Assembly (NCBI GenBank): GCA_019057385.1
Contig: JAHQJS010000005.1
Span: 288,799-352,798 of the forward strand
Length of the DNA stretch: 64,000 nucleotides
Origin: Candidatus Borrarchaeum weybense
GTDB lineage: Archaea > Asgardarchaeota > Sifarchaeia > Borrarchaeales > Borrarchaeaceae
Reading direction: 5' to 3'
Shown here: piece after piece, positions 40,368-51,502 of the stretch
Position numbering within the stretch: the stretch's first letter is position 1
How the letters are laid out: every line of letters begins with the position of its first letter
The notes under the pieces: generated by a model
Database searches by the model: none
Seen by the model: the letters and a program-made list of their open reading frames with translations, nothing else
What the model was told of the DNA's origin: nothing
Translations under genes and position numbers: made by a program

Positions 40368-40460
40368 TGGCGCCGCCGGAAGGACTCGAACCTTCGACCA
40401 GCGGGTAACTGCCAAGGGTATGTTAACAGCCCGTCACTCTACCAACTGAGCTACGGCGGC
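40368..40460 (-). tRNA. tRNA-Asn(GTT) with a 17-nt intron at 37/38 (40407-40423), CCA encoded
   Basis: Cloverleaf GCCGCCG...GTTCGAGTCC...CGGCGGCGCCA; 93-17=76 nt. Confidence 0.92.
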
Positions 40461-40785
40461 ACTTTAACGACGACATTATGTTTTTTCAAGTATTTTATAA
40501 ATCTTCTCATTTTGAGCTAAGAACGCCTCATTTCCTTTCGTTTTTCTGTATATCTACACATCTTACTTCCCATTGCATAACAGATCTCAGTAAATACTCG
40601 CACTTCGGATAATAGGTGTTTTCTTCTGTACATCAGTACTTCTCTTTTTATACCGACTTTCTTATCGGCTTCAAAACATTTAACTCTTAAGCTGACGGGT
40701 ATTAATATTAGAGAACCAAATCTTCAAATCTGTTTTGCAAAGAGCCTCAGAATATTCAACCAGCAGCCTTTAAAGAGGGAATCCA

Positions 40786-42060: not shown

Positions 42061-42165
42061 CTCTTGGCGTTAGTTATTCCAAAAAGTTTTTATCCAAAAA
42101 ACTTTTACCTTCACTACGAACGTAGAAAATTTCACACTCTATTGTAGATGGCTGGGAGATAGTAT

Positions 42166-42270
42166 GGCCGGGGTGAATGATTCGAGTTTCGAACTCTTTC
42201 ATCCCCCTGGGTAGTGGTATCCTAAGGGATTGTGGCTCCCTCGATCCGGGTTCGATTCCCGGTCCCGGCC
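42166..42270 (+). tRNA. tRNA-His(GTG) with encoded G-1 and a 33-nt intron at 9/10 (42176-42208)
   Basis: Strict BHB (CC/GG, GGGG/CCCC, ATGA/TCAT, bulges TG|A and CT|G); the spliced product is a normal His cloverleaf with C73. Confidence 0.88.
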
Positions 42271-42313
42271 CTCATTTACAGCATTGCATCGGCTGTCTCA
42301 TCGTTCTATCTGT

Positions 42314-42446
42314 GGGCCCGTAGCTCAGTTGGAAGTATTCCGGTGCACTTACGCATCCATTTCAAAAGCGCCTGGTTTGCAGCCAGGAGGCCGCGGGAAG
42401 TTTTCAGACTCCTGGAAACTCGCGATTTCAAATCCCGCCGGGTCCA
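42314..42446 (+). tRNA. tRNA-Ala(TGC) with introns 42336-42366 (22/23) and 42398-42426 (53/54)
   Basis: G3-U70 pair; both junctions fold as BHB-like; spliced length 73 nt. Confidence 0.88.
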
Positions 42447-42854: not shown

Positions 42855-44035
42855 CCGCTTTCAATAAAACAAGGTGTTAACTCTCTCATTACCAATTGTT
42901 GACATAAAATTGCTTGTTTTTCTCGTCATTTATAGATGATCTTGCTACATTCATGTTGTTCTCGAAATCGTCTTACACAGACATCGTTTCTAATGCTAGC
43001 TACGGTATCTTTTTTGGTAAATCACGCGCGTAATTTCAAAAAAAAACAGTTGATTATAGCTCTATTGACATCTATTTATCATCGTTCGCAAAAATAAACA
43101 TCTGCGCTCCTTATTACAGTGACCTGACAACACTTTTTTACAGGATATGAGCGCTCTTGCCTTGAAACCTTCATTGCGCGACGGTAAAAAAGATACATAT
43201 AAAAGTGCTAAATGCGTAATATTTATATTGCTTCGCTGTATCACATAATTCCCCTCTATCTGAAATATCAATTTCGGATTTACTTAACTATGAGGGGACT
43301 TTTACCAATTGGATGCAACATACAGACCATAGTGCGTCTGTAGGTGAAGTAATTGGTTGTGAGTTCAACGATGAGCTTAAGGGACTGCGGATCTCAAGTC
43401 TCCTAATGACAAAGACTTGCCGATAGAATTTGGTAGTCTTTGTGAAGGCGGATACTGTGGTTCGCAGCGCGGGTTCGCGCACCAGCACCCCCGTCCACTG
43501 CCTTATGAACTCTGGCAGTAGCTGCGGCGCCTCAACGGACTCGGGCTGAACCTTGAGTGATTAGATCCAACTTCCACAAACTTATAGTTATTACTTTTAC
43601 GTATATCAAAGTAATTACCGCGATATACTTGCCTTCATCCCTCTTGTGGAGGAAGAGGGAACTGCTTTTCATGAGAATGTGGTCGTAGAAGGACTTAGTG
43701 GTTATGGTGAACACATTATCATAACTCGATTGAGTCTCGTTAAATGAGCAGGCTCGCTTGTGGCTCCGATACCGGTTGATCCTGCCGGACCCGACCGCTA
43801 TTGGGATGGGATTAAGCCATGCAAGTTGTGCGCTCCTAGTTATGAAGGAGAGCGGCAAAAAGCTCTGTAACGTGTAGTTAACCTCTCCTCAGGACGGGCA
43901 TACCCTCGGGAAACTGAGGTCAATTCCCGATAGTTGATTAGGCCTGGAATGGTTTTTCTTCCAAAGGTATCTTCTCATGCGAGGATACTACCTGAGGATG
44001 GGACTGCATCTGATTAGGTAGATGGTGGGGTAACG

Positions 44036-44074
44036 TGACCTTTAGTACACTCTTACACACTATCGGTCTTATAC
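44036..44074 (+). other. 16S BHB mini-intron, 39 nt (about E. coli 265/266)
   Basis: Interrupts GGGGTAACG|GCCCACC; GTAA/TTAT helix, GACC/GGTC stem. Confidence 0.88.
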
Positions 44075-44158
44075 GCCCACCATGCCGATAATCAGTACGG
44101 GCTGTGAGAGCAGTAGCCCGGAGATGGAGACTGAGACAACGCTCCAGGGCCTACGGGC

Positions 44159-44195
<37 letters not shown>

Positions 44196-44280
44196 TGACG
44201 GGGCCATCCCAAGTGCCATCCGATAAGGGTGGCTTTTTCTCAGTGTAAAAAGCTGGGCGAATAAGGGGAGGGCAAGGCTG

Positions 44281-44406
44281 ACTGGATTGAGGCAAATCAC
44301 TAACACTATATTCTCGATGAACTATACTTCCCTAAAACGCGGCGCTTATAGTTCATCAAAAACTCTTATGCTTATCAAACTTACAAAACGCCTCATCCAG
44401 GCCTAT
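44281..44406 (+). other. 16S BHB intron, 126 nt, no ORF (about 514/515)
   Basis: Interrupts AAGGCTG|GTGCCAGC; AGGC/GCCT helix, CTGGA/TCCAG stem. Confidence 0.92.
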
Positions 44407-44614
44407 GTGCCAGCCGCCGCGGTAAAACCAGCTCCTCGAGTAGTCGGGAGTATTACTGGGCCTAAAGCGTCCGTAGCCGGCTTTGTAAGTTCCTGGTCAA
44501 ACCCAGCGGCTTAACCGTTGGCTTGCTGGGGATACTGCAAAGCTTGGGAATCAGAGAGGCCAAGGGTACTAACAGGGTAGGGGTGAAATCCTGTAATCCT
44601 GTTGGGACCACCGG

Positions 44615-44645
44615 ACAGCAGAGAGACACTCTCCTGCTGGGTGAG
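44615..44645 (+). other. 16S BHB mini-intron, 31 nt (about 722)
   Basis: ACCACCGG|TGGCGAAGG; CACC/GGTG, CAGCAG/CTGCTG. Confidence 0.92.
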
Positions 44646-44716
44646 TGGCGAAGGCGCTTGGCTGGAAGATGTCCGACGGTGAGGGACGAAAGCCAGGGGA
44701 GCGAACCGGATTAGAT

Positions 44717-44747
44717 ACTTGGTGCTAATTATTGTATCATGCTAAAA
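44717..44747 (+). other. 16S BHB mini-intron, 31 nt (about 793/794)
   Basis: GGATTAGAT|ACCCGGGTAGTCC; TTAG/CTAA. Confidence 0.88.
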
Positions 44748-44872
44748 ACCCGGGTAGTCCTGGCTGTAAACGATGCGAGCTAGGTGTTTGCGTGGCTACG
44801 GGCTATGCAAGTGCCGTAGAGAAGTCGTTAAGCTCGCCGCCTGGGGAGTACGGCCGCAAGGCTGAAACTTAA

Positions 44873-44934
<62 letters not shown>

Positions 44935-45040
44935 AAGCCTGCGGTTTAATTGGACTCAACGCCGGGAAGCTTACCGGGGGCGACAGCTGGATGAAAGCCA
45001 GGCTGATGACCTTGCTGGACTAGCTGAGAGGAGGTGCATG

Positions 45041-45919
45041 AGGTAGTCAGGTCGTTAGCAAAACTTTTCGTCGCTTTCCTTTTCCTCTCAATAACAAAAG
45101 TCTAGATTCTTCCTGATGTCCTTTTTAATTAAAAGGGATAAGTCAGGTTGAATTCAAATGACTATTGGCGACAAAGGAAAGTTTGTTTTACTTAAAACGA
45201 AAAGTCTCATCAATCGCATACGTCAACAGCATAATGAAACAGTTCGTGGTATTTACGAGCATGTCGCAGATCTTGTTAAATGGAATACATTTCGAGACTG
45301 GGCTTATAGAGGCTGGTCACGAATGCCTTTAGAAGTATTTAGGCGACTAAAAAGTAAATACAAACTCAAAGAATCACCAAAAACGGTTACAGAAAAACAA
45401 TGGTATACACTAACTCGAACGAGAGCCGCTGAAATAATGCATAAATGCCACCCTCATAAAGAGTGGCTATCAGAAGCCGCAAAAAAAGGCGGCGAGGCTG
45501 TAAAAGAAAAATATGGTGTTAAATATCTAACAAACCTTTCTGCAAAGGCGATTCACTCGTCATCTAGTTATAGGTATGAAGACGATGATGGAAACAAATA
45601 TCGCAGCCGCTTAGAATTATCCATCGCTAAACTACTCCGAACGCATAATTTGAAGTTTATATATGAACCAGAGATTGAGGGATATGTTCCAGATTTCAAG
45701 ATTAATAATCCCCTCATCGAAGTGTGCGGTTATTTCCGTGATAAAGATTATCTTACTCGACTTAAAGTCAAACTAACTGATTTAGTCAATAAAGGCTGGC
45801 AAATAATTCTAATATGCGAGCCTAGCAAAAAAGCAGTTCTCACTGAAGCAGTTAAAGGTATATCCATAAATGCGATTAAGACAACAGATGAGTTTCGACG
45901 ATTTCTGACTACCGGCAAA
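45041..45919 (+). mobile_element. 16S BHB intron, 879 nt, endonuclease-encoding (about 1057/1058)
   Basis: GGTGCATG|GCCGTCGCC; terminal stem GGTAGTCAG/CTGACTACC. Confidence 0.92.
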
Positions 45920-45955
45920 GCCGTCGCCAGTTCGTGCCGTGAGGTGTCCTGTTAA
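45158..45955 (+). CDS. Intron-encoded PD-(D/E)xK (T7 endonuclease I-like) putative homing endonuclease
   Basis: YRSRLE..IA..L......FIYEP....YVPDF......IEVCG; basic N-terminus with KKGG...KEKYG; the genomic ORF runs 36 nt into the exon. Confidence 0.75.
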   Translation: MTIGDKGKFVLLKTKSLINRIRQQHNETVRGIYEHVADLVKWNTFRDWAYRGWSRMPLEVFRRLKSKYKLKESPKTVTEKQWYTLTRTRAAEIMHKCHPHKEWLSEAAKKGGEAVKEKYGVKYLTNLSAKAIHSSSSYRYEDDDGNKYRSRLELSIAKLLRTHNLKFIYEPEIEGYVPDFKINNPLIEVCGYFRDKDYLTRLKVKLTDLVNKGWQIILICEPSKKAVLTEAVKGISINAIKTTDEFRRFLTTGKAVASSCREVSC

Positions 45956-46233
45956 GTCAGGCAACGAACGAGACCCCTGCGCCTAGTTGCCAGCGGATCT
46001 CTGCGGAGATGCCGGGCACACTATGCGGACCGCAGCCGATAAGGCTGAGGAAGGAGGGGGCCACGGCAGGTCAGTATGCCCCGAATCCCCCGGGCTACAC
46101 GCGGGCTGCAATGACGGGTACAATAGGTTTCGACTCCGAGAGGAGGAGGCAATCCTCAAAACCCGTCGCAGTTGGGATCGAGCGCTGCAACTCGCGCTCG
46201 TGAACATGGAATCCCTAGTAATCGCGTGTCATC

Positions 46234-46284
<51 letters not shown>

Positions 46285-46318
46285 TCCGAGTGAGCTTTAG
46301 GCGAGGCGCGTTCCGTAG

Positions 46319-46351
46319 GCAGTATAGGACAACTGTCACATACTGACGGAA
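46319..46351 (+). other. 16S BHB mini-intron, 33 nt (helix 44 tip)
   Basis: CCGT/ACGG helix, CAGTAT/ATACTG stem, bulges AG|G and AA|G. Confidence 0.82.
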
Positions 46352-46380
46352 GATCGTGTCGAACCTGGGGTTCGCAAGGA

Positions 46381-46435
<55 letters not shown>

Positions 46436-47257
46436 CGTAATTAATTTATCCTTTAAGGGCCAAGCTTGAGTCTGCTCATGCGAAAAGACTGCAATCGGGA
46501 ACAATATGATGTGAACCATAAATCACCAGGTTATACATGAAATGCCATATTTTTAGCCGCTTACATAGGTGCGAATGGAACCAGGGGCTCATTAGTGTCT
46601 GGATACATACGCCATCTGGTGGATGACTTGGTTTGGGCACTGAGGAAGGTCGTGGCAAGCTGCGATAAGCCTGGGGTAGGTGCATGCTGCCTTCGAACCC
46701 AGGATTGCCGAATAGGACTTCCAATTAAGGATTAATAACCCTTAATGATCCGTAAGGATCGGGAACCCCGTGAACGGAAACATCTTAGTAACGGGAGGAA
46801 AAGAAACCAATAGGGATTCCCTTAGTAAGGGCGACTGAACGGGGAAGAGAGCAAACTGAACCCCTTAAGGATGACTTAGGGGGGATGTGGTGTGGTAGGC
46901 CTGGTTTCGGCCTACTCAATGAAGTTGAAATGGTCTGGAACGTCCCGCCGTAGAGGGTGAAAGCCCCGTAAACGTAAATTGAGAGGTCTTATGACCAGTG
47001 TCCTTGAGTACTGTGGGCTGGATACCTCGCAGGAATCTGAGAGACACTCACTCTCAACTCTAAATATGTCCCAAATCCGATAGTGCACTAGTACCTTGAG
47101 GGAAAGTTGCAAAGTACCGCGAAAGCGGGGTTAAAAGAGCCTGAAACCAGATGGTAACAGACGTGCGCGGCCCGAAAGGGTAGAGTCTCTTTGAAGGAAC
47201 CCGGAGTAATCCGGCAGTACGAAGAGAGAGGACCAGGGTTGCGCAATCCGTCTTGAA

Positions 47258-47287
47258 ATCAGACGAGATATCCTCGTCTAACAAGAA
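47258..47287 (+). other. 23S BHB mini-intron, 30 nt (about 572/573)
   Basis: CCGTCTTGAA|ACACGG; CTTG/CAAG. Confidence 0.88.
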
Positions 47288-47641
47288 ACACGGGCCGGGG
47301 AGTTTATGGTCGTGGCGAGTTTAAGTGGATCATCCACGTAGGCGAAGGGAAACCGACAGCACGCATCTAGGCGTACCAGCTCACCAACAGTTGGGCTGTG
47401 GTCTATACCGAACCTCATTTGTCCTAATTCTTTCAATGGCTTCGGCCAACGAGAGAGGCAGGGCGCCGAGTGGACGTATGGTCTTCATCTCGACTCAGTA
47501 GTGGGTATGGGCAACTAGTCAGGTGCGAGGTCTTAATCGGCCTGGAGTCACGATTGTAAGACCCGAAAGCGAGTGATCTAGCCCTGGGCAAGATGAAGCC
47601 AGGGGAAACTCTGGTGGAGGTCTGCAGGGGTGTTGACGTAC

Positions 47642-47676
47642 AAGGAAATGAGAGATCATACTCTCGTTCTGCGTAA
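47642..47676 (+). other. 23S BHB mini-intron, 35 nt (about 748/749)
   Basis: GACGTAC|AATTCACTC; ACGT/GCGT. Confidence 0.85.
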
Positions 47677-47716
47677 AATTCACTCCCATGACCTGGGGTT
47701 AGTGGCAAAAGACCAA

Positions 47717-48719
47717 TCGCATTAACAAATGAGCCAATAACTAGCGTTCTCTAATTCCATTAAAAGCAGCCTTTTAATACTAAATTTGATATTATCTGTG
47801 AATAGTTGAATTCGGAGAATCATTGATGACTCAAAGAAAAAAATGGACTGCATATCGCATTAACAAAGATTTTGTTCGCAACAACAAAAAACGAGAACTA
47901 GCAAAATTAGCAGCATTTTTACTTACAGACGGGGGTTTATCCAGAGATAAAAGAACATATGTCATTTATTTCACAAACAAGTCTGAAGTATTACACGAAG
48001 TGTTTGAATCTCTTATAAGAGATCTTGTCCCTCAAGCTAATATGCGAAGCTCAATGTACAAAGGTGTTAAAAGAACTTACTTTAACAGTCTAGAACTTGC
48101 TGAATTGCTTTTTGAACTATCAGATTCTTATCGAACGGCACCATGCGAATCGTATCCAGTTTGCGCTAAGATTCGCGATAAACCCGAAATGATTCCTTGT
48201 ATCAAGTGCAATCAAATACGTGGATATCCCAATGCTACGTATCCTGAGATCAGCGACTTGGAATTGCTGGAAGAAATCTTGCAAATAATTGCGGATACTG
48301 AAGGTGGACCCGTTCTTTTTATTCATAGATATCCTAAATATATCTCTATAAGAAGAAGAATTGAGATAGGATGTTCGCATCCGATTCTTAAGAAACAAAT
48401 TAAACAAATGCTGGAAAAATTAGCTATTCCTAGCAAAATCGCAAAGGATACAATTAGAATTGAAGGTAAAGGAATTAGGATCTTTCGTGACAAAATAGGC
48501 TTTCGAAAGAACGTCAAAATGAGTACTGGTAACTTCGAAGGCTATAATAAGAACAGTGTATTAGAAATTATGATTATCACTAACGAATTGATAACTAAGA
48601 AAAAGTTCTTTCCAAGTAAAGTTGATAACTTGAATGCAATGTTAATGAAGGCTGTAGAACTTTTTGATAATACTTTTTCGCGAGAACGCGTTGTTGAGTT
48701 TTTAGTTAATGGGGGTTAG
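47717..48719 (+). mobile_element. 23S BHB intron, 1003 nt, LAGLIDADG-encoding (about 789/790)
   Basis: GACC/GGTT helix, bulges AA|T and AG|A, CATTAAC/GTTAATG stem. Confidence 0.85.
47823..48719 (+). CDS. Intron-encoded double-motif LAGLIDADG homing endonuclease
   Basis: LAAFLLTDGG and ILQIIADTEGG; the TAG is the last codon of the intron. Confidence 0.9.
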   Translation: MMTQRKKWTAYRINKDFVRNNKKRELAKLAAFLLTDGGLSRDKRTYVIYFTNKSEVLHEVFESLIRDLVPQANMRSSMYKGVKRTYFNSLELAELLFELSDSYRTAPCESYPVCAKIRDKPEMIPCIKCNQIRGYPNATYPEISDLELLEEILQIIADTEGGPVLFIHRYPKYISIRRRIEIGCSHPILKKQIKQMLEKLAIPSKIAKDTIRIEGKGIRIFRDKIGFRKNVKMSTGNFEGYNKNSVLEIMIITNELITKKKFFPSKVDNLNAMLMKAVELFDNTFSRERVVEFLVNGG

Positions 48720-48750
48720 ATAAGGAAGGGTGTGTCCCTCCTTAGGTAAA
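48720..48750 (+). other. 23S BHB mini-intron, 31 nt, directly abutting the LAGLIDADG intron
   Basis: TAAGGA/TCCTTA stem, GACC/GGTA helix; removing both introns restores GACCAA|TCTAACTCGC. Confidence 0.8.
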
Positions 48751-49054
48751 TCTAACTCGCTTATAGCTGGTTCCCCCCGAAGTGCATCTCAGTGCAGTCT
48801 GATCCGAGGTAGCTGGTGGGGTAGAGCACTGATTGTGGAAAGGTGGAGGAGAAATCCTTGCCGCCGCTCTCAAACTCCGAATCTGCCAGCGCCGTAGACG
48901 GTTGGAAACGGGCGGCCGGGCGTAAGGTCCGGCGCCGAGAGAGGAACAACTCTGACTGCGGTTAAGGTCCCTAAGTGCTAGCTAAGTGTGATCATGAAGG
49001 CTGTGGGCAGTCTTAGACAGTGGGGAGGTAGGCTTAGAAGCAGCCATCCTCTAA

Positions 49055-49075
49055 ACTGCTAAAAAGCAGAGAGAA
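49055..49075 (+). other. 23S BHB mini-intron, 21 nt (about 1085/1086, GTPase-associated centre)
   Basis: CTCT/AGAG, CTGCT/AGCAG. Confidence 0.85.
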
Positions 49076-49675
49076 TGAACGCGTAACAGCGCACCCATTG
49101 AGACTGTCCGCGCCGAAAATGGACGGGGCTTAAGCTAGCCACCGATACCGCGGAGCTGACGAAAACTTAGCATGAATCGTCATCTCATTTTCGAATGATT
49201 TGATTTACTCATGTTAATTGAGTACTCAGTTGGTAGGGGGGCGAGCCGGTTGGGCGGAAGCTGGGCTGTGAAGTCCAGTGGACCGACCGGTTTCGCAGAT
49301 CCCGGTGGTAGTAACAGCGTAGTCGGGTGAAAATCCCGATCGCCGGAAGGGCAAGGGTTCCTCGGCAATGCGTCGTCAGCCGAGGGTTAGTCGGTCCTAA
49401 GTCTGGGCGTAAGTCGCGTAAGGCGAAAGGGTAAACGGTTTATATTCCGTTACTACGAGGATACACGCGGTAACGCAAGCCAAGATTCTGACGCTTTCGG
49501 ATAGGCCGATTAGAGCTATCGCTCTAATTAAATGTAGAAACCTCAGGAGTACCGTAATGGTGAGAATGAGGTGAATGCATGAATAGCTTTCCGTAATAGG
49601 TGAGTTCGGTCAACTCCAGGAGCCATTGAAAAAGGACTTGGAAGGATTCTTCGTATCCGTACCCAGAACTGACAC

Positions 49676-49726
49676 TTAGATCGTACAGGAACGTGACAAT
49701 CTAGTCATGCGGACGATTTAGTCAAA
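49676..49726 (+). other. 23S BHB intron, 51 nt (about 1617/1618)
   Basis: GACAC|AGGTG; TGAC/GTCA, TAGATCGT/ACGATTTA. Confidence 0.9.
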
Positions 49727-50384
49727 AGGTGCCCCTAGGTGAGCAGCCTAAGGCGTTTCGGGTGAACTCTGGGCTAGGGAAATCGGCAAATTGGCCCCGT
49801 ACCTTCGGAAGAAGGGGTGCCTACGGTCTTGGGTCGCAAACTTGGGACCGTAGGTCGCAGTGACCAGGAAGTGCTATCTGTTTAATAAAAACATAGCTAA
49901 CTGCTAGCGCGAAAGCGTGTGTACAGTTAGTGAGTCCTGGCCAGTGGCGGTAAGTTAAACCTGAGTTCAATCGGGCGAAGCTCCGCTAAACGCCGGGAGT
50001 AACTATAACTCTCTTAAGGTAGCCAAATGCCTTGCCGGATAAGTACCGGCGTGCATGAAGGGAGCAATGAGCGCTTTACTGTCCCAGCCTGGAACCCGGT
50101 GAACCCACTACCTGGCGAACAGTCCAGGGAGTCCTTGCGGGAAGAGAAGACCCCGTGGAGCTTTACTGCAGCCTGTGCCTGTGCTACGATCGTTGATGCA
50201 GAGCGTAGTCGGGAGCCGTTAATCCCAGCCTCTTCGGGGGTTGGAGTAGGCAACCTTGGAACACCGACCTTCTTTGATTGTATCGCTAACCGGAACGAAC
50301 GTTCTGGAACAAGTGCAGGTGGGCAGTTTCGCTGGGGCGGCAGACCCTTGAAAATGTATCAAGGGTGCCCAAAGGTCAGCTCAG

Positions 50385-50416
50385 AATGCAATTACGTAAG
50401 TGAGTTGCATGAGTAA
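50385..50416 (+). other. 23S BHB mini-intron, 32 nt (about 2299/2300)
   Basis: GCTC/GAGT, ATGCAATT/AGTTGCAT. Confidence 0.88.
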
Positions 50417-50427
50417 GTGGGTCAGAA

Positions 50428-50470
50428 TCAACGGATGAGATTCTGGCTATGACCTTATCAGTTGCTGAAT
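50428..50470 (+). other. 23S BHB intron, 43 nt (about 2310/2311)
   Basis: GGTCAGAA|ATCCACC; TCAG/CTGA, CAAC/GTTG. Confidence 0.88.
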
Positions 50471-50488
50471 ATCCACCGTAGAGCGTAA

Positions 50489-50519
50489 AGGTGAAGGTGA
50501 CCACCACCTTGCCATGTAG
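50489..50519 (+). other. 23S BHB mini-intron, 31 nt (about 2328/2329)
   Basis: GAGCGTAA|AGGTAAAAGC; GCGT/ATGT, AAGGTG/CACCTT. Confidence 0.85.
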
Positions 50520-50642
50520 AGGTAAAAGCTGGCTTGACTGTATTCTGACCAGTAAAGAATGCAGGAACGAAAGTTGGGCTTAGCGATCCTCAATACCTTA
50601 TCAGTGGGGGTTTGAGGTGACAGAAAAGTTACCCCGGGGATA

Positions 50643-50756
50643 AATGCGTCAGTTTTGTGAATATAGAAAGTGTGTAGACAAAGCTTAGTAAAGTTGTATG
50701 GGTAATTTAGCTTTGACGATTGTACAACTTTATGAGCGTCTGCGGCGCATTCCCAA
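50643..50756 (+). other. 23S BHB intron, 114 nt, between A2450 and A2451 equivalents
   Basis: GGGATA|ACAG; GGGA/TCCC, ATGCGTC/GGCGCAT. Confidence 0.92.
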
Positions 50757-50872
50757 ACAGAGTCGTCGCGGGCAAGAGCCCATATCGACCCCGCGGCTTG
50801 CTACCTCGATGTCGGCTCTTCCTATCCTCGATGTGCAGCAGCGTCGAAGGGTGGGGTTGTTCGCCCATTAAA

Positions 50873-50904
50873 AAGGAGGCGAAAAATACCTCTCTCCTTA
50901 ATAG
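50873..50904 (+). other. 23S BHB mini-intron, 32 nt (about 2566/2567)
   Basis: ATTA/TAAT, AGGAG/CTCCT, CCC/GGG. Confidence 0.9.
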
Positions 50905-51059
<155 letters not shown>

Positions 51060-51502
51060 ACAGGTTGGATTCTATCTGCAAGGACTGCCGGTGGTCTGAG
51101 GGTAGGGTGTTCTTAGTACGAGAGGAACGGAACGTCGGAGCCTCTAGTGTACCAGTTGTCCGAAAGGGCAGAGCTGGGCAGCCACGCTCTAACCGATAAG
51201 AGCTGAAAGCATCTAAGCTCGAAGCGGGTCCCGAAAAGAGACCACCAATCACCAACAGAGGAGTTAGGGTGACCGTCCGTAACTGTTGGGGACGAGGACT
51301 CCAGGAAAACACTGGTTTGATAGAGCTGAGGTGTAAGTGTCGAGGGTACAGAGATGGTACTCTTAGTATTGTACACTCGCCTAAATCCCTCCAACCTCTT
51401 GGTCATGTACATAACCGTCTCTTCGGAGATAGTTGTGTCGTGATTAATGTTGTTGGGCCGAGGCACTCAGCCTGCAGCCACTAAACGTCCGAGTGTTCAG
51501 AC

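Follow-up and report, generated by a model that had tools for sequence, protein, structure and literature searches.

Candidatus Borrarchaeum weybense (Asgardarchaeota) carries a tRNA-His gene with an intron between nucleotides 9 and 10 of the tRNA. The gene lies in the 64,000-nucleotide (nt) stretch analysed here, which is called the window below (assembly GCA_019057385.1, contig JAHQJS010000005.1, positions 288,799 to 352,798 of the forward strand). The bulge-helix-bulge (BHB) splicing motif of this intron is built in part from the 5' strand of the acceptor stem, and a second, slightly altered copy of the same strand is found in the leader of the gene. The locus thus raises the question of what happens to the 3' acceptor strand before splicing, and what the copy in the leader is for. 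The best-supported role of the copy, to which about an even chance is given, is that of a stand-in strand that would hold the 3' acceptor strand while the intron is removed; the main rival, considered rather unlikely, is a neutral relic.

The intron at position 9/10 of tRNA-His

tRNA-His(GUG) is encoded at 42166-42270 (coordinates are those of the window unless a contig or locus is named), and its 33-nt intron occupies 42176-42208. The exons are colinear on one strand within 105 nt in total, so the gene is neither split nor permuted. The features needed in the following are listed here; hBHBh' denotes the full motif, in which the BHB is flanked by an outer and an inner helix, and the variants are those of the next section.

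42166-42175, + strand: 5' exon, with the encoded G-1 at 42166; invariant in four variants; pairs with 42263-42270
42167-42173, + strand: 5' acceptor strand, nt 1-7, GCCGGGG
42170-42173, + strand: 5' strand of the central BHB helix, tRNA G4-G7; 4/4 pairs in all four variants
42174-42175, + strand: U8 and G9
42176-42208, + strand: BHB intron at 9/10, 33 nt, strict hBHBh' motif
42203-42206, + strand: 3' strand of the central BHB helix, CCCC, intron nt 28-31; invariant
42209-42270, + strand: 3' exon, nt 10-73, with G10 at 42209 and the anticodon GTG at 42232-42234
42246-42262, + strand: T-arm
42263-42269, + strand: 3' acceptor strand TCCCGGC; C73 is at 42270
42263-42270, + strand: 3' acceptor strand with the discriminator C73, TCCCGGCC; partner of both the true 5' strand and the leader copy; invariant in all variants

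The unspliced gene was not called by ARAGORN in any of the four variants, and the Rfam tRNA model RF00005 matched just 42209-42262 (model positions 10-63, 34.8 bits). After in-silico removal of 42176-42208 ARAGORN called tRNA-His(gtg), and the same result was obtained for all four variants. The spliced product has U8, G10, A14, G18 and G19, and a 7-bp acceptor stem plus the pair G-1:C73.

The window locus was analysed with a BHB scanner written for this work, which looks for a central helix of 4 bp, two bulges of 3 nt each with the cut behind the second base, and flanking helices. One solution alone gave a tRNA, and it is a strict hBHBh' motif. Its outer helix consists of 3 bp between G1 C2 C3 and G11 G12 U13 (GCC/GGU), the bulges are U8 G9/A on the 5' side and C U/G10 on the 3' side (the slash marks the cut), and AUGA with UCAU forms the inner helix, which has 4 bp in the window variant against 6 bp in the three others. 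The strict motif is retained in 4/4 variants. The hairpin loop of the intron (region 42189-42195) is different in each of them (TTTCGAA, TTTCAAA, TTTCGTT and TTTCATG); the 3' bulge has T or A as its second base (CT or CA), and the stems are retained. No double compensatory change in the intron stems was found among the four variants. Relaxed criteria (3/4 central pairs, 1-bp flanks) gave dozens of matches per 130 nt and were useless; a 2026 preprint also warns against them (bioRxiv 10.64898/2026.10.13.758758).

Judged from this motif, tRNA-His almost certainly carries a BHB intron at 9/10. This intron is of a known kind and ordinary in itself; what is unusual is its place. The host genome encodes two paralogues with the EndA catalytic domain PF01974 (99 and 77 bits, at C4:663774 and C5:195898), as is also seen for broad-specificity enzymes accepting non-canonical sites. 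The tRNA-His genes of the other sampled Asgard families had no intron at 9/10; they carry D-loop or T-loop introns, or none. Among the genomes searched, the 9/10 intron of tRNA-His is restricted to this genus. Public runs matching the locus consist of contigs, mostly from DNA. One unspliced 151-nt contig over 42120-42270 comes from a run labelled as RNA that is probably DNA, and another RNA-labelled run yielded one contig over the neighbouring tRNA-Cys; both contigs are without splice joints or mapped ends.

The motif draws on tRNA nt 1-13 and excludes both the acceptor stem and the D-stem. Since it is built from these nucleotides, the acceptor stem cannot coexist with it, and the 3' acceptor strand is left partnerless. 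An earlier note on this DNA, made from the sequence alone, had placed a strict BHB intron at 9/10; its coordinates proved exact, and the intron is kept in the four variants. The note derived the motif from nt 2-9, which is essentially right, and its statement that the acceptor stem is blocked until splicing agrees with the mutual exclusion of the two structures.

The leader and its second 5' acceptor strand

Upstream of the 5' exon two further features can be distinguished.

42150-42157, + strand: leader copy of the 5' acceptor strand, GGCTGGGA, corresponding to G-1 to nt 7; pairs 8/8 in register with 42263-42270
42158-42165, + strand: spacer GATAGTAT, separating the copy from the true 5' end; the other three variants read TAAGTAT, of which TA is the counterpart of U8 A9 in the copied exon

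The copy sits 16 bases upstream of the true 5' end. Its pairing with the 3' acceptor strand (GGCTGGGA with TCCCGGCC), an 8-bp match that the earlier note had also pointed out, involves six G-C pairs, one U.G and one A-U. 8-mers able to pair with the 3' strand (GGYYGGGR) occur 250 times on both strands of the 4.18-Mb genome (37% GC), and the probability of finding one by chance within 30 nt upstream is about 9e-4.

Conservation was assessed in four distinct variants of the locus: the window, whose genome is designated G000; G004, a sister species of the same genus, whose locus is designated L003; and two metagenome contigs, L019 and L020. Over the stretch compared, the G004 locus is identical to that of a Candidatus Borrarchaeum yapensis metagenome-assembled genome and also to three metagenome contigs. 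The copy is conserved as GGCTGGGR in 4/4 variants (as GGCTGGGA or GGCTGGGG), and the variable last base, A or G, faces U66, so that both forms pair. Conservation starts exactly at the first G of the copy; the 24 aligned columns before it are almost all variable and of unequal length. In L019 the 3' trailer is unalignable too, yet the 15-nt leader is one position off that of G004. A close variant from an independent sediment metagenome study differs from the window at 42100, 42136 and 42145, and none of the differences listed for it falls within 42150-42175. By these measures the leader copy is very probably non-random and under constraint.

About 20 nt just 5' of the copy (42126-42149) cannot be aligned among the four otherwise close variants, although both flanks are conserved, and G004 and L020 pass abruptly from identical to unrelated sequence just upstream of it. 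Two other pairings were discarded. A 7-bp helix between upstream leader and 3' trailer (UGUAGAU/AUUUACA), present in the minimum free energy fold of the window, was dropped because its upstream bases are unconserved in the other variants. A BHB-like pairing between the two copies (GGCU/GGCC, with a 15-nt 'intron' at 5/6) had weak flanks, all of them G.U, and was regarded as spurious.

Origin of the copy

The leader sequence is GGCTGGGG-TA-AGTAT in G004 and L020, and that of the exon is GGCCGGGG-TG, followed by the start of the intron, AATGAAT. Alignment of leader and exon shows that the copy spans G-1 to nt 9, U8 included; U8-A9 is retained in 3/4 variants. The leader element is probably a diverged tandem duplicate of the whole 5' exon, and that the decoy of the earlier note was built for its purpose is not supported. 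Judged from the four variants, the copy appears to have drifted after duplication in everything except its ability to pair with the 3' strand.

The tRNA-His gene of G004 has an extra 31-nt insertion in the D-loop (L003:1564-1594; identical in L015-L018), which is absent from the window, L019 and L020. Within the insertion, nt 22-37 of the adjacent exon, TCCTAAGGGATTGTGG, are repeated directly and exactly (16/16). By hand, a relaxed BHB can be drawn at 21/22 with the central helix GTGG/CCAT and the inner helix CCTGCAA/TTGTGGG, and with no outer helix. From its sequence, the insertion looks like a recent intron gain by local duplication.

Recurrence in other tRNA genes of the same genome

Intact T-arms were used as anchors in 18 Asgard-type tRNA genes of the window genome, and each upstream 7-mer that pairs with the gene's own 3' acceptor strand was listed. 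A second 5' strand, 12-16 nt upstream of the true one, was found in 3/18 genes.

tRNA-His: upstream copy GCTGGGA, true 5' strand GCCGGGG
tRNA-Thr(CGU), contig C4: upstream copy GCCCCGG, true 5' strand GCCTCGG
tRNA-Asn(GTT), window 40368-40460, - strand: upstream copy GTCGTCG, true 5' strand GCCGCCG

These three genes reached a score of at least 6 in cis, and none of the 282 trans pairs used as control reached 5.5 or more. An insertion directly after nt 9 is present in the His and Thr genes only, and both have the second 5' strand; it was thus found in 2/2 genes with such an insertion and in 1/16 of the others (Fisher p about 0.02, in a small sample). A genome-wide search for tandem 5' strands that did not require a T-arm recovered His and Asn, and its other tRNA-like matches were not tRNAs. 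The G004 Thr and Asn loci are 94-97% identical to those of the window genome, flanks included, and are therefore uninformative on constraint.

In the Thr(CGU) gene (G000:C4:189660-189775, - strand, designated L023) two 5' strands, either of which may be the exon, lie 12 nt apart (GCCCCGG-TA-CAT-GCCTCGG-TA) and are followed by a 29-nt insertion. Neither the 8/9 nor the 9/10 boundary of this insertion gave a canonical BHB. The upstream copy can form a strict 16-nt BHB whose outer helix has 7 bp, but the product is not a tRNA; a nested two-step splicing model did not yield a tRNA either.

Recurrence in another Asgard family

In other Asgard genomes truncated Rfam matches served as a motif-free flag, and 12 flagged genes were compared with 13 controls (controls from G011, G016 and G026). 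A true insertion at 8/9-9/10 was present in three of the 12 flagged genes, and all three have an upstream copy. The remaining flagged genes carry D-arm, variable-region or T-loop insertions, so a truncated Rfam match is a poor flag. No real upstream copy was detected in the 13 controls, where the matches were trivial overlaps of GCC repeats and one distant, G.U-rich match.

L029, tRNA-Thr(GGU) of G011: GCCCCGG-AG-AGC-GCCCCGG-TA, intron 22 nt
L050, orthologous tRNA-Thr(GGU) of G021: GCCCCGG-AA-GTT-GCCCCGG-TG, intron 16 nt
L032, Arg-like gene of G011: GGGTCGT-TA directly before GGGTCTG-TA

Thus in G011, of family f8, both genes with an insertion at 8/9-9/10, Thr and Arg-like, carry the copy. The Thr genes of G011 and G021 have a BHB with a 4/4 central helix at 8/9, built from nt 1-8; no clean BHB was found at the junction of L032. 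Comparison of the two Thr genes showed the pairing 7-mer to be identical (7/7), whereas four of the five bases that follow it differ. The copy has no U8 in either gene (AG in G011, AA in G021), which indicates that it is not an exon. The most telling result is this Thr contrast, which, as far as sequence comparison goes, places the constraint on the pairing bases. The 12-nt arrangement is common to the Thr genes of the window genome and of f8, and for this reason it seems old. The association of leader copies with introns that borrow the 5' acceptor strand is supported in the window genome and in another Asgard family.

Folding models and the proposed mechanism

In folding models of the window variant the fully constrained BHB fold became more probable with the native leader, at 8e-5 instead of 1e-10. 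The gain ranged from about 250-fold to 700,000-fold across the four variants, and in 3/4 of them the native leader was at or above the 90th percentile of shuffled leaders. In models of the unspliced RNA the leader was paired with the 3' strand with P=0.85, 0.83 and 0.12 (0.85 being the window value), and the true acceptor stem had a probability of about 1e-6 to 4e-5.

In the mechanism proposed here the copy would lie at or very near the 5' end of the primary transcript. It would pair with the 3' acceptor strand and keep that strand occupied, and the real 5' strand, freed in this way (nt 1-3 for the outer helix), could build the BHB. Before splicing the real RNase P site would be hidden or nonexistent. 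After cutting and ligation the real strand, now contiguous with the D-arm, would displace the copy; RNase P would then remove the leader, and this cleavage would make the swap irreversible. The copy would have been born by a short tandem duplication and then retained by selection. That it acts in cis as a stand-in for the 5' strand, holding the 3' acceptor strand during splicing, is the reading favoured here, with chances that seem evenly balanced. Slightly below this we place the more general proposal that intron-rich archaea use an undescribed class of cis-acting RNA element: a spare 5' acceptor strand at the start of the precursor, which would hold the 3' strand for introns at the acceptor/D junction, would force splicing before RNase P cleavage, and would arise by short tandem duplication of the 5' exon.

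Alternative explanations

Several observations weigh against a stand-in role, and they are given here with the alternatives on which they bear. The alternative that survives best, although rather unlikely, is a neutral relic. A tandem duplication of short period (12-16 nt), which may have come from the same error-prone process as the introns, would have left a dead, slowly decaying copy. Inclusion of nt 8-9 (TA) and of G-1 in the copy is expected of descent rather than of selection for pairing. Every difference between copy and exon is a GC-to-AT transition, as neutral decay in an AT-rich genome predicts. The tRNA-Asn gene has an intact copy (40468-40474, - strand, 14 nt upstream) but just the canonical 17-nt intron at 37/38, and thus no 5'-proximal intron; both differences between GTCGTCG and GCCGCCG are C-to-T changes that keep G.U pairing, and in G004 the 7-mer of this copy is retained and the next base changed. 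A tRNA-Tyr gene (G000:C5:184612-184714) has a decayed copy, GCCACCA, 13 nt 5' of GCCGCCG, which after two G-to-A changes no longer pairs. The Asn and Tyr copies may be relics of lost introns. Local duplication has, in addition, been active at this very gene, if the G004 insertion with its exon duplicate is a recent intron.

The models of the spliced RNA also favour a relic. In these the leader stays on the 3' strand (P 0.54-0.98, versus 0.0002-0.37 for the true strand), and a leader that still competes after splicing would be harmful rather than helpful. The earlier note had proposed a switch that enforces splicing before RNase P cleavage; the models agree with the half of this that precedes splicing, putting the leader on the 3' strand and favouring the BHB fold, but the return swap was not seen in them. 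Since the two-dimensional models fail to show it, the return step would have to rest on tertiary folding and RNase P, which lie outside such models. Covariation in relatives was suggested in the same note as a check. The pairing is conserved in all four variants; compensatory changes are impossible, as the mature tRNA leaves the 3' strand no freedom to vary, and the sole variable position (A/G opposite U66) is uninformative. Further weak points are the small sample overall, the close kinship of G011 and G021, and the L032 copy, which pairs with its own 3' strand at just 5/7 positions.

A dead copy would, however, hardly be expected to persist in four variants that cannot be aligned just upstream of it. 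Neither would decay account for G011 and G021, where exactly the seven pairing bases are conserved and four of the next five bases and the intron differ. The association of copies with insertions at 8/9-9/10 in two families, and the apparent age of the 12-nt Thr arrangement shared by the window genome and f8, also argue against a mere relic and are consistent with a stand-in strand.

The stand-in role requires the copy to be transcribed. A second alternative, considered improbable, is that transcription starts inside or after the element, and that the conservation acts at the DNA level, for instance in start-site selection or as promoter-proximal sequence. The promoter feature on which this depends is the following.

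42123-42132, + strand: TATA-like box TAGAAAATTT, at -44 to -35 from tRNA nt 1; predicted promoter of the tRNA-His/tRNA-Cys unit

The box aligns with an A-rich CTTAAAYGAA element in the other variants. The clearest TATA boxes of the tRNA genes of this genome are at -41 to -33 from nt 1, and tRNA promoters of Thermofilum range from -30 to -49 (PMC3218864). The spacing of the His box from the true 5' end is thus ordinary, and the start is predicted at about 42151-42157, at or inside the copy; with a start inside it, only part of the copy may be transcribed. With this prediction a start beyond 42157, named in the earlier note as contradicting its switch, is a real risk. For L003 the start was predicted at about position 0. 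In L019 the shared CTTAAATG element is 10 nt nearer to the copy, predicting a start downstream of it, and the predicted start of tRNA-Asn falls inside its copy. Moreover, each copy begins with G after a pyrimidine, like an archaeal initiator. Against a DNA-level role, the region between TATA box and start, the seat of proximal promoter elements, is exactly the part that is not conserved, and no promoter role is known for a G+C-rich 8-mer that matches the acceptor strand of its own gene. The clear TATA boxes of the Thr genes (G000, G011 and G021) and of L032 put the start 4-6 nt upstream of the copy (for the G011 and G021 Thr genes, a TATA box at -34/-35 to -27/-28 from the copy gives 4-5 nt). 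The spacing from the TATA box, in any case, predicts a start to within a few bases only.

Use of the copy as an alternative 5' exon appears still less probable. The endonuclease would use either copy with the same 3' site, giving two tRNA-His variants (C3/G9 or U3/A9), and the product of the upstream exon could begin at the transcription start with no need of RNase P. In L003 and L020 the copy followed by TA (GGCTGGGG-TA) does give a separate strict BHB that shares the 3' splice site, with a 48-nt intron, a 4/4 central helix and a 3-bp outer helix, and ARAGORN accepted the product as tRNA-His. The Thr copies of G011 and G021 can likewise form the same central and outer helices as the true strand. 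The window copy, however, is followed by GA (GGCTGGGA-GA), is without U8 and would place an A.C mismatch in the central helix, as would the copy of L019; in a product made with the G011 or G021 copy, which have no U8, the tertiary pair U8-A14 would be lost. All four variants share the same downstream exon but not the same upstream copy; on sequence grounds the downstream exon is taken as the functional one.

A coincidental match in an unconstrained leader is extremely improbable: G.U pairs broaden the matches and the finding was selected after the fact, but the low chance probability per gene, the absence of any of the 282 trans controls at the level seen in cis, the conservation in four variants and the recurrence in other genes and genomes all speak against it.

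Relation to known systems

Non-canonical BHB introns, multiple introns per gene and ordered intron removal are established in archaea (PMC4033280). Heavy interruption of tRNA genes in Asgard archaea has been published, with Borrarchaeaceae among the named families (Nat Commun 2024, PMC11291895; bioRxiv 10.64898/2026.10.13.758758). In the latter study Borrarchaeaceae have 2.12 intervening sequences per gene, half of which are missed, and tRNAscan-SE misses many Asgard insertions. The lists of intron positions in the reviews consulted include 3/4 and 20/21 to 59/60, and 9/10 was absent from the one checked for it. As non-canonical positions have been called 'seemingly random', and as 541 Asgard intron positions were catalogued in the 2026 census, with acceptor and junction cases described as 'few' (bioRxiv 10.64898/2026.10.13.758758), little weight is given to the novelty of position 9/10 itself. 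No description of a leader imitating an acceptor strand was found in the literature, and the word 'leader' occurs 0 times in PMC11291895 and in bioRxiv 10.64898/2026.10.13.758758. The present case contributes the duplication origin, the association test within one genome and a comparison between species in which the constraint falls on the pairing bases, together with three explicit caveats, on the start site, the return swap and the exceptions.

The tRNA-His intron shares with the non-canonical introns of Thermoproteales and intron-rich Asgard archaea the strict hBHBh' motif, the 4-bp helix with two 3-nt bulges and the two EndA paralogues, and it is likewise hidden from ARAGORN and partly matched by the Rfam tRNA model. 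It differs in its place at the acceptor/D junction, where the BHB takes an acceptor strand. As in the split tRNAs of Nanoarchaeum equitans and Caldivirga maquilingensis and the permuted tRNAs of Cyanidioschyzon and Thermofilum pendens, sequence outside the tRNA that is later discarded would help by pairing to give the endonuclease substrate (PMC4033280, PMC3218864). The leaders of those genes, however, form the BHB themselves and join two transcripts or ends, whereas the tRNA-His leader lies outside the BHB, imitates an exon strand and would pair with the strand that the BHB leaves free. Mutually exclusive folds would impose a processing order here as they do in the removal of neighbouring archaeal tRNA introns; the competing fold in tRNA-His is not a second intron but the acceptor stem with the RNase P site, and an extra cis element is proposed.

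For introns of the acceptor region the splicing motif and the acceptor stem compete for one strand, and a stand-in strand, if real, would account for the tolerance of such introns. In that case leaders of archaeal tRNAs would be able to carry information and to determine in what order the maturation steps take place. The route by which Asgard tRNA introns arrive was left explicitly open by the 2026 census (bioRxiv 10.64898/2026.10.13.758758). The tandem copy of the 5' exon and the G004 insertion with its exon duplicate both point to local duplication as one such route, and a duplication origin, if true, would link the element to the gain and loss of these introns. For annotation, standard tools miss such genes or start them wrongly, and where two 5' ends are plausible, gene calling can go astray.

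Neighbouring genes and other observations

A tRNA-Cys(GCA) gene with two introns (42313-42445) starts 42 nt after tRNA-His with no T-run in between, and the two genes are probably co-transcribed. The upstream neighbour is a three-intron tRNA-Leu gene. A conserved CCAAAAAGTTTTTATC at 42079-42094 may be the terminator of this gene, a promoter, or both.

Contig C1 of the same genome (179 kb) has at least 12 uninterrupted, clustered tRNA genes, including its own intronless tRNA-His (161784-161854), and holds the genome's only match to the Thg1 family (153867-154244). The tRNA genes of every other contig are heavily interrupted. The contig may be foreign (the estimated contamination of the assembly is 7%) or a large mobile element. 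At G000:C7:143743-143811, - strand, ARAGORN called a tRNA-Pyl (anticodon CTA) whose T-arm is intact and whose D-arm is short.

Archaeal 16S and 23S rRNA genes and an archaeal RNase P RNA were identified in the window with Rfam. The rRNA genes (43769-51398) are far longer than the corresponding models (2666 nt against 1478 positions for 16S, 4804 nt against 2987 for 23S), which indicates that they, too, are heavily interrupted.

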